Shown: positions 17,723 through 30,409, counted from the stretch's first letter. The stretch: DNA of 64,000 bases from a virus (IMGVR_UViG_3300028805_002025:1-64000), one strand, 5' to 3'. Made by a program: numbers and translations. The notes: generated by a model not told the origin, from the letters alone.

Positions 17723-17807
17723 TGGAGTACTGAGGGTGGGACTCGAACCCACATACACCAATTACGTGGTTAATGTCAGTGTATAAGACTGCGACGATAC
17801 CTCAGTA
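17723..17807 (-). tRNA. D-armless tRNA with TAT anticodon (Ile-AUA-like)
   Basis: CAGT CTTATAC ACTG arm, T arm, extended acceptor, CCA; D arm replaced by ~8 nt. Confidence 0.6.
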
Positions 17808-18020
17808 TTAAACCTCAATGGAATCATCATTCCAGTATGGATAGTTAGACTTCTCTGACTCTGGTGTATCTGTGACTTCATAAAAAGCGCCACAGAAGGG
17901 ACATGTCATATTTGTTACCATTGCATCATCCTCATCACAATCAGCGACTCCTATGTCACTAAGCATAACATTTCCTCCTATTATGAGGTCATGACCACAA
18001 CGCATACATTTTAATTCCAT
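17808..18020 (-). CDS. small zinc-ribbon protein
   Basis: CMRC...CPFC; likely start MELKC. Confidence 0.65.
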   Translation of the reverse strand: MELKCMRCGHDLIIGGNVMLSDIGVADCDEDDAMVTNMTCPFCGAFYEVTDTPESEKSNYPYWNDDSIEV

Positions 18021-18057
18021 AATGATAATATTAAAAGTCGTATTTTTCAACTAAAAA

Positions 18058-18327
18058 ACTGAGTGTGCTGTTACGCCAAAGGAGTCCCGTGTGTCCTACC
18101 GAAACCTAGGTTCATAACCCCGCCATACTGCCAGTACCTACTCTCTAAGGGTGGACTTTTACCCAAATGTAGGCAGCAGGCCATTGAGTTTACAATGTCA
18201 TGTTGTTGATTACCCCTCACAGTCAATATCTCCCAGGCTACTTTCTAACTCCTGGTTGCTTAAGGCTCACAGGGAACTTTATGCCCACTCCTTAGAAGAT
18301 TGCTGCTCTCAAGCCAACTTCCTCAGT
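18058..18327 (-). ncRNA. 23S rRNA-mimic RNA (GTPase centre with a PTC-like insert)
   Basis: GAGGAAGTTGGCTTGAGAGCAGCAATCTTCTAAGGAG...GCGTAACAGCACACTCAG matches 23S H43/H44. Confidence 0.7.
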
Positions 18328-18338
18328 GTGTCTACTTG

Positions 18339-18412
18339 AGCGATTGCTGGGAATTGAACCCAGTACCCCTCGTCTGGACGACGAATGCTCTCCCGAATGA
18401 GCTACTAACCGC
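18339..18412 (-). tRNA. tRNA-Gly (TCC), atypical anticodon loop
   Basis: TCGT CGTCCAG ACGA arm. Confidence 0.7.
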
Positions 18413-18422
18413 AAAAAAAAAA

Positions 18423-18568
18423 GGAAACGGTTGTTGTTTATTTTTAGTGCTCTAAACCAGCTGAGCTACCGCCACATGTAGTTTGAAAAAGTGTGGCGGG
18501 CAGGATTCGAACCTACGACCCCTAGCTTGGATTGCTTTTCTAAACGATAACACTTGCTGTACGTTTCC
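18423..18568 (-). ncRNA. ACAGCA-stem RNA 8, YrlA-type permuted tRNA mimic
   Basis: order: T arm, CCGCCACA/TGTGGCGG closed acceptor, D arm. Confidence 0.8.
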
Positions 18569-29044: not shown

Positions 29045-30409
29045 TTAGAAGAATTTAATCTTATCCTCCTGTGCCTTGATGTTCATCTTTGGCTTCATAA
29101 AGAACTCAATGTTGACTGTTGGCTCAATGAGCTTCACTATCTCCTCCATTGGCTTGTAAGCGTCTGGAGCTTCGTCAAGGGTCTTCTCGTCGGCAGTGGT
29201 GGTGTAAATCCCAGCATCAGCCATCTGCTTCTTGAAAGCCTCTGCATCAAGTGTGTCGAAAGCCTTTGAACGGGACATAATACGTCCAGCACCATGAGGA
29301 GCTGTGTAGTTCCAGTCCTCGTTCGACTTACCTGTGCAGATTGAGATACCATCCCTCATATTGAATGGGATAATCACTCTCTCACCCTCGTAGGCACGGA
29401 TAGAACCCTTACGAATCATCATGTTTGGCTTTCCAGTCAGAGCCTTGAAGTCGTAGTCGATATAGTTGTGTGTGGTAGTGATGAAGTCAACTGGCTTTCC
29501 ACCGTCAGACATCTTCCTATATATATCCACAACCTGCTCGTTGATGACCTCGTGGTTCAGCTGCGCATAGACCTGGGCGATAAGCACATCAACCAAGTAG
29601 CCCATAAGGTGCTCACCAGAGAGGTAGCCTGGAATCCTATGGGAAAGGTACTCCTCCCTTGCAGCCTTCAGCTCCTCCTTTATCTTGGACTTGTCGGTAT
29701 TCTTAGCCTTGACGTTGTTCTCAAGCATCTTCATTTCCTCCTTGGAAACGGTCATACTCTTGGCAATCTTATTCCAGTAGTTGAACACAGCCAGACCCAG
29801 CTTACGTGACCCACAGTGTACGCATACGCAGTACTTACCCAACTCCTCGTTGACATCGTACTCCAGGAAGTGGTTACCACCCCCAACGCTACCGATAGAC
29901 TTCAAGAACACGCCATAGTCAATACGAACTCTGGTACACCACTTCTCCAAGTCCATCTCACTGTTGAAACGGATTGCGTAGTCAGCGAACTGAGGATACA
30001 ATGCGCACAGTCTATCCATAGCAGCATTCACTGCCTTAGTGATACGCTTCCACTCAATCTTAGACTTGTCGTTGATTGAGAAGCCGAAAGGTATCTCCTT
30101 ACGAATCTTGTGCTCGAACTCCTTCATGTTCTCATCCAGAATTGGCTTGTCAAAGAAGGTGGCTGATATGGTACAGCCTATGTCACAGCCAACGTGCTCT
30201 GGGTTAACATGGTCTTTCTCGATGTCAACAGGGCATGAGAAACCAACAACGATACCCTTACCATCATGGCAGTCTGGCATAATACGTATCTTTCTGTCCT
30301 TGAATGCGATACAATCCGCAATCCTGTATATTGTTGAGAATGCCGACTCCTCAACATTGTCTGTAAAGACCTTTACATCCTTACAATACTGTCCTTTAAT
30401 CTCTAACAT
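29045..30409 (-). CDS. rtcB: RNA ligase RtcB
   Basis: MPDCH, VGCDIGC, GGGNHF, HCGSR, HN, HGAGR, DEAPDAYK motifs. Confidence 0.95.
   Translation of the reverse strand: MLEIKGQYCKDVKVFTDNVEESAFSTIYRIADCIAFKDRKIRIMPDCHDGKGIVVGFSCPVDIEKDHVNPEHVGCDIGCTISATFFDKPILDENMKEFEHKIRKEIPFGFSINDKSKIEWKRITKAVNAAMDRLCALYPQFADYAIRFNSEMDLEKWCTRVRIDYGVFLKSIGSVGGGNHFLEYDVNEELGKYCVCVHCGSRKLGLAVFNYWNKIAKSMTVSKEEMKMLENNVKAKNTDKSKIKEELKAAREEYLSHRIPGYLSGEHLMGYLVDVLIAQVYAQLNHEVINEQVVDIYRKMSDGGKPVDFITTTHNYIDYDFKALTGKPNMMIRKGSIRAYEGERVIIPFNMRDGISICTGKSNEDWNYTAPHGAGRIMSRSKAFDTLDAEAFKKQMADAGIYTTTADEKTLDEAPDAYKPMEEIVKLIEPTVNIEFFMKPKMNIKAQEDKIKFF

Follow-up and report, generated by a model that had tools for sequence, protein, structure and literature searches.

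What kind of gene occupies positions 18058–18327 in the transfer RNA (tRNA) array of a large phage from the ruminant gut? The locus lies in the first 64 kb of the 241,681-bp IMG/VR virus record IMGVR_UViG_3300028805_002025 (CheckV completeness 75%), and this stretch of 64,000 nucleotides (nt) is referred to here as the window. On its minus strand there are 44 tRNA genes, a gene for transfer-messenger RNA (tmRNA) and, within the array, a 270-nt element. An earlier note had described this element as a miniature mimic of 23S ribosomal RNA (rRNA), with ends resembling the uL11-binding GTPase-associated centre (GAC) and an interior resembling the peptidyl-transferase centre (PTC). The boundaries were placed exactly, the stem ACUGAG/CUCAGU bracketing all 270 nt. 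The element encodes a non-coding RNA that is stable and structured, and this free-standing RNA of the tRNA array does imitate the GAC. Its interior does not imitate the PTC; that likeness is at chance level.

The ends of the element are a stem-closed copy of the GAC of 23S rRNA, that is, of the tip of helix H42 together with H43 and H44 (Table 1). In an anchored alignment with a full-length E. coli 23S rRNA (L165:757–3660), the window copy agrees at 27 of 40 positions over 1051–1090, at 13 of 18 over 1091–1108 and at 37 of 49 over 1056–1104, so that the resemblance pointed out in the earlier note is real. Four of the mismatches make up the compensatory pairs 1058-1080 and 1082-1086. The nucleotides engaged in tertiary contacts are kept, namely U1060, A1070, G1071, C1072, the pair C1082-G1086, A1088, the pairs G1091-C1100 and C1092-G1099, and A1095 and A1096. 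Deviations from rRNA are found at G1067, A1068, G1069 and A1076, and A replaces U at 1101. The junction sequence GAGU equals the consensus 1087–1090 of bacterial large-subunit (LSU) rRNA, which places the insert and the UUUG linker between 1090 and 1091. The insert stem P3 (GGG...UCC) begins directly after GAGU and ends directly before UUUG, and the closing stem P1, whose six pairs all undergo two-sided changes among 19 relatives, replaces the tip of H42. The element forms a four-way-junction version of the GAC. Folding of the single sequence was uninformative, its minimum free energy being no better than that of shuffles (z = 0.53), and the structure was taken from sequence comparison alone.

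A local search with an LSU covariance model had been named as a check in the earlier note. The bacterial model found nothing in a 700-nt stretch. With the element alone it gave a weak match (13.2 bits, E 0.043; window 18271–18323, model 1095–1146, 52 nt), and with the relative L162 a strong one (47.9 bits, E 5.6e-12; model 1043–1196). Neither the window copy nor six relatives matched domain V, and no continuity beyond H42–H44, as in a 23S rRNA gene or fragment, appeared in the LSU model searches. Within the whole record there was no LSU match at E <= 0.001, and the two GAC halves were found nowhere else in its 241.7 kb.

The element belongs to a family. Scanning of IMG/VR with GTTGGCTTNNNAGCAGCNATC returned at least 118 loci. 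Among the matches listed, two were true 23S rRNA (L096 and L112, the latter at 2214 bits) and a few others were due to chance. A common architecture (P1, H43, UYUAARGAGU, insert stem, insert, UUUGGCGUAAYAGCACAC, P1') is shared by at least about 100 viral loci; its GAC part is constant, while the insert varies from about 20 to more than 400 nt. A tRNA gene lies within 1 kb at 71 of the 118 listed loci, and the nearest tRNA is on the same strand without exception. In every feature tested the window element agrees with the family: it has a covarying P1, an H43-like hairpin with a covarying base (1057-1081, 1058-1080), a junction with a Watson-Crick 1082-1086 pair, an insert stem, GCGUAAYAGCAC with A1101 after UUUG, and same-strand tRNA neighbours in a phage genome. 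Its H43-like hairpin differs at four positions from the family consensus 21-mer GUUGGCUUnnnAGCAGCnAUC and has the pairs A-U, A-U and G-C at its base. Unannotated members are present in the cultured phages Serratia BF, Erwinia Kaldavass and pEa_SNUABM phages, Xanthomonas XbC2 and XacN1, Pseudomonas pf16, UNO-G1W1, Milchi and Astolliot, Ralstonia RSP15, Aeromonas 4_4572, one Vibrio phage and Paenibacillus Pd_22F. The family is absent from Rfam 15, and full-text literature searches turned up no description of it.

Covariation was assessed in 79 sequences at the positions which the search patterns had left free. Pair 1058-1080 is formed in all 79 (A-U in 27, G-C in 25, U-A in 24), and all four Watson-Crick pair types occur across the P1 stem (1051–1055/1104–1108). 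A purine·A combination is found at 1056·1103 throughout, which is also the case in E. coli. In the insert stem, the initial three pairs form in 74 of the 79 sequences, by 23 different triplets. Covariation extends to the tertiary pair 1082-1086, which is C-G in 32 sequences, U-A in 27 and A-U in nine. In E. coli, H43 and H44 are held together by a C1072/C1092 pair with a C1072-G1099 hydrogen bond and by the contacts G1071/G1091-C1100 and A1070-A1096 (PMC2952862). Members with U1072 were fished separately for an examination of this triple, all raw loci being tabulated with one regular expression that allowed any 1092-1099 pair. The combination was C·C-G in 74 of 74 distinct elements of the one type and U·U-A in ten of ten of the other, with zero exceptions. 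Together with the 1082-1086 covariation, the triple indicates that the family retains the three-dimensional fold of the GAC and not its sequence alone, which rules out a decaying rRNA fragment. That possibility had been raised in the earlier note, and the abundant compensatory change among the homologues excludes it; the more than 100 loci with shared architecture and covariation are also the decisive support for the resemblance to the GAC.

When 596 Gb of prokaryotic genome sequence was searched with TTTGGCGTAANAGCACA, there were 120 matches, about 100 of which are chance matches in coding sequence (about 280 expected) and some 20–25 true elements. The latter lie almost without exception on contigs of metagenome-assembled genomes, possibly binned phage DNA, and thus provide no evidence of a chromosomal home. 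It is not uncommon for a genome to have more than one copy. One viral contig (L068) carries two members about 1 kb apart (1115–1241 and ~2176–2370), one of the C1072 and one of the U1072 type, and a contig of a metagenome-assembled genome (L232) likewise holds two copies. Divergent members were also seen, one with an extra hairpin in the 3' strand of H43 (L196) and one with an altered H43 5' strand (L184). Strict patterns miss variants of this kind, and the family is therefore larger than counted.

Some members resemble the ribosome in more than the GAC. In the inserts of five long members (L014, L030, L092, L097 and L107; inserts of about 290–420 nt) we found a stem-closed hairpin AGUACGAGAGGAA(A/C) that resembles the sarcin-ricin loop (SRL). 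With two weaker matches counted, the motif occurs in seven of 85 elements, compared with 0.8 expected by chance. Thus, both halves of the factor-binding site are copied in parts of the family. A hairpin of this type was looked for in the insert of the window element and none was found. Elsewhere in the record, outside the window at position ~77668 on the minus strand, there is a 14-mer, AATACGAGAGGAAC, with two mismatches from the SRL core.

The 206-nt insert of the window element is a conserved, independently folded domain in which some ten helices covary and two loops pair with each other. Three insert-derived patterns retrieved about 20 distinct members of this subfamily from viral and metagenome contigs, the source records including complete phage genomes of 327–412 kb. 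The proposed structure was scored on an alignment of 19 distinct sequences (A2). Standard pairs occupy 92.2% of the cells, as against 32–47% when partners are slid by one to three columns, and two-sided changes occur at 41 of 66 pairs as against 10–15 in the slid controls. The observed values were not reached by any of 500 shuffles. Since the structure was derived from the A2 sequences themselves, it has some advantage over the controls; the margin in covariation is still large. P3 closes the junction, and the helices emerging from it are P11/P11b (enclosing P4), P6, the P7 arm with P8, P9 and P10. P11 is paired in all sequences, through variants such as CCUU/AAGG, CCUC/GAGG, CCAU/AUGG and CCCC/GGGG, and P11b is weaker (78% paired). 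In P6, three pairs switch to give AAACU/AGUUU in L135, L159 and L162, and the hairpin is missing in L155. The loop-loop contact joins GGAC of P10 (18093–18096) to GUCC of P8 (18153–18156). It is 98.7% paired, L155 turns its U-A pair into C-G, and both loops lie outside the fishing pattern. The invariance of the P9 loop is partly by construction because that loop lies within the pattern. Long unpaired stretches, ACAACAUGA, CAGUAUGGCG and GGUAGGAC, are invariant as well. Scans with the insert-derived patterns never found the insert outside a GAC-like frame. Three pairings considered for the domain were given up: a hairpin P5 (GG-GUAA-UC), which overlaps the better-supported 3' strand of P11; an extension of P6 using C149, which clashes with P7a; and a pairing of CCCUGUG with CACACGGG, which was replaced by the covarying P10.

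The likeness of this domain to the PTC did not withstand examination. All seven strings quoted in the earlier note are present and collinear with 23S rRNA, at element positions 50, 93, 142, 160, 189, 210 and 226 and 23S positions 2058, 2442, 2499, 2516, 2567, 2581 and 2603. Collinearity was judged by local alignment with cheap long gaps, which is equivalent to collinear chaining, against dinucleotide shuffles. The insert scored z = 0.71 against domain V, with 49 of 200 shuffles equally good, and z = -0.09 against the whole 23S rRNA; seven relatives gave no consistent signal in the same test. In 13 more distant relatives, the conservation of blocks 1–7 was 0.70, 0.41, 0.74, 0.69, 0.43, 0.97 and 0.88, the block with 0.97 lying in the fishing pattern. 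The topology of pairing differs, too. In 23S rRNA, CCGGGG, the counterpart of block 2, pairs with CCCCG, the counterpart of block 1, and the two form H74. In the element, block 2 (CCUGG) provides the 3' strand of P4, a local hairpin, and CCCU of block 1 pairs with AGGG at 18214–18217. The greater part of blocks 3, 5 and 7 falls on strands of the covarying hairpins P6, P7 and P10, and block 6 is mostly the loop of P9, unlike the strands of the multi-helix ring between H73, H74, H89, H90 and H93 of 23S rRNA. On the grounds of chance score, poor block conservation and a pairing topology unlike domain V, imitation of the PTC by the insert was rejected.

Transcripts of the element or its relatives are present in ruminant-gut metatranscriptomes. 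Parts of a 1.2-kb stretch around the locus were contained in 16 runs, and four of these (X1–X4), from four studies, were compared as contigs, which carry no strand, exact ends or true abundance. In a sheep run (X1) the element had a depth of 337 and the flanking open reading frame (ORF) one of 5–9; the 267-nt contig, from a relative similar to L143, covers just the element bounded by P1. The corresponding depths were 24–55 and 3–7 in a bovine run (X3), and 39 and 2–3 in another (X4). The fourth run (X2) has a single 1420-nt contig from a relative of 90–95% identity; it includes element and flanks together and therefore offers no depth contrast. Uncovered stretches and relative depths between tRNA regions were not used as evidence, since tRNA contigs may stem from other organisms. 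The contigs would fit a stable RNA that is cut out of the transcript of the array.

Two further contigs of run X4 are of interest. One, at depth 3, joins 18028 to 18331 and skips 302 nt. It represents a close relative which has the ORF and the tRNA-Gly gene and lacks the element, which thus behaves as a discrete module that is either present or absent. In the other (321 nt, depth 39; window 18064–18331), the 3' end of the element is followed by 23 nt (RNA sense UCUGGUGAUUUGUCUA|AAUAGAC) and then by its 5' end, and the two ends of the contig overlap each other by about 28 nt. This is the pattern of a 291-nt assembly-graph cycle, whether from tandem genes of a relative, from circular RNA or from an artefact of the palindrome TGTCTA-AA-TAGACA.

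The surroundings of the element (Table 1) are phage DNA devoted to the translation apparatus, with tRNAs, tmRNA and an RtcB-family RNA ligase. The rtcB gene, about 11 kb from the element and in the same window as the 44 tRNA genes and the tmRNA gene, fits a theme of RNA repair or protection of translation, and RtcB is an enzyme able to circularize RNA. The ORF directly downstream encodes a product of 80 amino acids with two CxxC pairs and no Pfam family above cut-off; its start is probably an internal ATG near 18020. It follows within a few tens of nucleotides after the element in 13 related loci (68–92% identity), including those of the L119 type discussed below, and is missing beside the element in several other clades of the subfamily. 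In Rfam 15 no family other than tRNA reached the gathering score in 17800–18500 or 18040–18345, the LSU match being below threshold; a match to DUF805b in that search (E <= 10) was at chance level (E 0.45–1) and was disregarded.

Table 1. Positions of the RNA element, its parts and its neighbours in the window
Feature	Position	Strand	Remarks
tRNA-Gly(UCC)	18338–18412	minus	same strand; the element starts 10 nt downstream
P1, 5' strand ACUGAG	18322–18327	minus	pairs with 18058–18063; substitutes for the H42 tip; closes the element
H43-like hairpin (E. coli 1057–1081)	18296–18320	minus	loop UUGAGAGCA versus UUAGAAGCA in rRNA
Junction CUAAGGAGU (23S 1082–1090)	18287–18295	minus	includes the tertiary pair C1082-G1086, G1087 and A1088
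Insert domain, 206 nt, between 1090 and 1091	18081–18286	minus	conserved multi-helix fold specific to the subfamily
P11 and P11b, enclosing the P4 sub-domain	18214–18274	minus	P11, CCCU 18271–18274 / AGGG 18214–18217; P11b, AGCC/GACU
P4 hairpin CCAGG/CCUGG	18233–18255	minus	loop GAGUU..UAGC conserved; 5/5 pairs change on both sides; contains PTC-like block 2
P6 hairpin CAUUG/CAAUG	18182–18197	minus	100% paired; contains PTC-like block 3
P7 arm, bearing P8	18128–18179	minus	P7b, 6/7 pairs change on both sides; contains PTC-like blocks 4 and 5
P8 hairpin, loop AAAAGUCC	18149–18164	minus	4/4 pairs change on both sides
P9 hairpin, loop GUUAUGAA invariant	18108–18121	minus	100% paired; middle pair G-C 14 / A-U 5; contains PTC-like block 6
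P10 hairpin UUUCG/CGGGA, loop GUAGGACACA	18085–18104	minus	100% paired; three pairs change on both sides
UUUG linker and H44-like hairpin GCGUAACAGCAC (E. coli 1091–1102)	18065–18080	minus	A1095 and A1096 retained; A at 1101
P1, 3' strand CUCAGU	18058–18063	minus	followed by a run of six U
Zinc-ribbon ORF	17808–18050	minus	directly downstream of the element
RtcB-family RNA ligase	29075–30298	minus	190 bits, E 3.7e-57; open frame of 455 amino acids

What does the RNA do? We consider it somewhat more probable than not that it is a GAC look-alike which binds some partner that recognizes the GAC. Such an RNA would act in trans and off the ribosome by offering the look-alike to a GAC-recognizing factor. 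Candidate partners would be free uL11, a translational GTPase or a RelA-type factor, or else a toxin, enzyme or antibiotic directed against H43/H44; the partner would be titrated or diverted during infection, and the insert domain would add a second function in the subfamily of the window element. Several of these partners have precedents. The L11 N-terminus is needed for activation of RelA on the ribosome, and the tRNA elbow contacts the L11 stalk (PMC4974054). Tre23 ADP-ribosylates H44 at 1095–1098, thiopeptides have their binding site in H43/H44, and the SRL is the target of VapC toxins and of ricin (PMC8661411). It is conceivable, if rather unlikely, that the RNA is an anti-defence decoy, i.e. 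a stable look-alike of the factor-binding site absorbing weapons of the host or of competitors that are aimed at H43/H44, such as Tre23-type ADP-ribosyltransferases, nucleases and thiopeptides. As a decoy the RNA might be circularized by the phage RtcB, given the 291-nt back-joined contig, and the exchangeable inserts might serve as second baits, an SRL in some relatives and a novel kissing-loop domain here. A parallel is provided by phage tRNA arrays, which are thought to offset defences that target tRNAs.

Several observations weigh against binding of a GAC-recognizing partner, or limit the data on which it is based. The window copy and most members of its subfamily have G in place of A1067 of rRNA, in addition to other changes in the H43 loop. 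In four relatives (L119, L124, L149 and L153) the H43 loop is shortened and a generic hairpin has taken the place of H44, with the insert being kept; these degenerate loops point to relaxed selection on the loops that contact uL11 and translation factors in this lineage. Neither uL11 (searched with both domains) nor bL12 or RelA/SpoT homologues were found in the phage record, whose 75% completeness leaves their absence unproven; without such proteins of its own, a protein partner of the phage RNA, if any, would probably be that of the host. The Fisher p of about 4e-13 for the 1072·(1092-1099) triple ignores shared ancestry, and the contig depths are crude, with carry-over of DNA into the RNA libraries being possible.

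The degenerate loops lend themselves to another explanation, namely that the insert is the working part of the RNA, as a binding platform or a catalytic fold, and that the GAC frame is mainly a stable scaffold for folding that came with the family. Conservation and covariation run through the whole insert, which contains long invariant unpaired stretches and is kept by the relatives of the L119 type in spite of their degenerate H43/H44 loops. Moreover, the complete 409.5-kb phage G001 possesses both a degenerate-GAC element with an insert of the window type (L119) and a canonical GAC element (L304; G001:155176–158196), whose insert of ~275 nt differs from the window type, as if functions had been divided between paralogues. 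These relatives suggest an independent function for the insert, and that paralogues can take on one function each. That the GAC is reduced to a scaffold is nevertheless doubtful: across the family it is the GAC that is constant and the insert that varies, the window copy keeps every nucleotide of the GAC tertiary contacts, and the insert has not turned up without a GAC-like frame. An action in cis is improbable. The element might be a processing or termination module of the tRNA operon, or a leader controlling the zinc-ribbon ORF, which would agree with the close succession of element and ORF in the 13 related loci, the six U after P1 and the position 10 nt after tRNA-Gly. However, most family members are flanked by tRNAs and have no downstream ORF, several clades of the subfamily lack it, and the skipping contig of run X4 has ORF and tRNA-Gly without any element. 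The depth of the element is about 10–40 times that of the ORF, and a processing signal need not preserve the tertiary contacts of the GAC.

Alternatively, the RNA might act on ribosome assembly or composition by capturing newly made uL11, and with it stalk proteins, so that ribosomes made during infection lack them and RelA-dependent stringent signalling is blunted. Preservation of the uL11-binding RNA fold and the need of RelA for the L11 N-terminus (PMC4974054) would be compatible with such an action, to which we assign very little probability: the sequence of P1 is variable and the uL10-binding part of H42 is hence not copied, and the H43 loop is altered in the subfamily. A miniature 23S rRNA imitating both GAC and PTC is barely credible by now. 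The collinear order of the seven strings speaks for it, but a comparison of 200 x 2900 nt should yield dozens of shared seven-mers and 9-of-11 matches in any case, the score is that of chance, no domain V match was obtained with any of the seven elements searched, and with two blocks conserved at only 41–43% and helices unlike domain V, sequence and secondary structure already refute the idea. Next to nothing is left of the proposal that a decaying fragment of host 23S rDNA was captured, or that the locus is an assembly chimera. It would account for the high identity that H43, the junction and H44 show to rRNA, but not for a covarying closing stem of the element's own, a fixed position of the insert, compensatory changes everywhere and a covarying triple, nor for the presence of the element in complete phage genomes and cultured phages and the lack of other LSU sequence in the record.

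Among the known systems close to the element is the GAC of bacterial 23S rRNA itself (E. coli 1051–1108), the 58-nt domain that binds uL11 and thiostrepton: helices and junction are the same, the family consensus is nearly identical, and both share the non-canonical purine·A at 1056·1103 and the same tertiary contacts, with covariation at 1082-1086 and in the 1072·(1092-1099) triple. Unlike the GAC of rRNA, the phage element is free-standing, with a closing stem of its own, rather than part of a 2.9-kb rRNA, and its junction is four-way instead of three-way, the 206-nt domain and UUUG being inserted between 1090 and 1091. As regards the SRL (H95 of 23S rRNA), it is the five long-insert members that carry the similar hairpin, and the window's insert is without it. 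Off-ribosome RNA copies of protein-binding sites of rRNA are familiar from the autoregulatory leaders of ribosomal protein operons, exemplified by those of L10(L12)4 and L1, which are short, partial mimics in the 5' untranslated region of the regulated ribosomal protein genes. By contrast, the element is a copy of the full domain with its tertiary fold, has a large extra domain and resides in a phage tRNA array; no ribosomal protein gene adjoins it, neither a uL11 nor a bL12 gene was found in the record, and the ORF downstream is that of the zinc-ribbon protein. GOLLD and ROOL (PMC12286853) are large, ornate and structured phage-associated RNAs near tRNA genes. The element resembles them in being phage-borne, structured and often located beside tRNAs, but it is much smaller and has no Rfam match to either. 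Neither GOLLD nor ROOL is known to copy an rRNA domain, and the RNAs known so far to copy protein-binding sites of rRNA are short cis-acting leaders of ribosomal protein operons. The element is a trans-encoded, phage-borne mimic of a full rRNA domain with modular inserts, and leaders of ribosomal protein mRNAs are the nearest known kind.

A complete copy of the GAC which preserves the tertiary fold thus exists as a separate phage gene, and large phages of numerous habitats have it too, cultured jumbo phages included. To this family the window contributes an insert which demonstrates that this part can be an elaborate, independently selected domain and can outlive the GAC loops in some lineages. 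It also contributes transcript evidence from the ruminant gut, and the tempting over-reading of the insert as a miniature PTC has been removed. If the RNA indeed binds uL11, translation factors or toxins directed against the GAC, viruses would have a hitherto undescribed means of manipulating or shielding the translation apparatus of their host, and the idea of phage tRNA arrays as a means of counter-defence would be extended from tRNA to rRNA.

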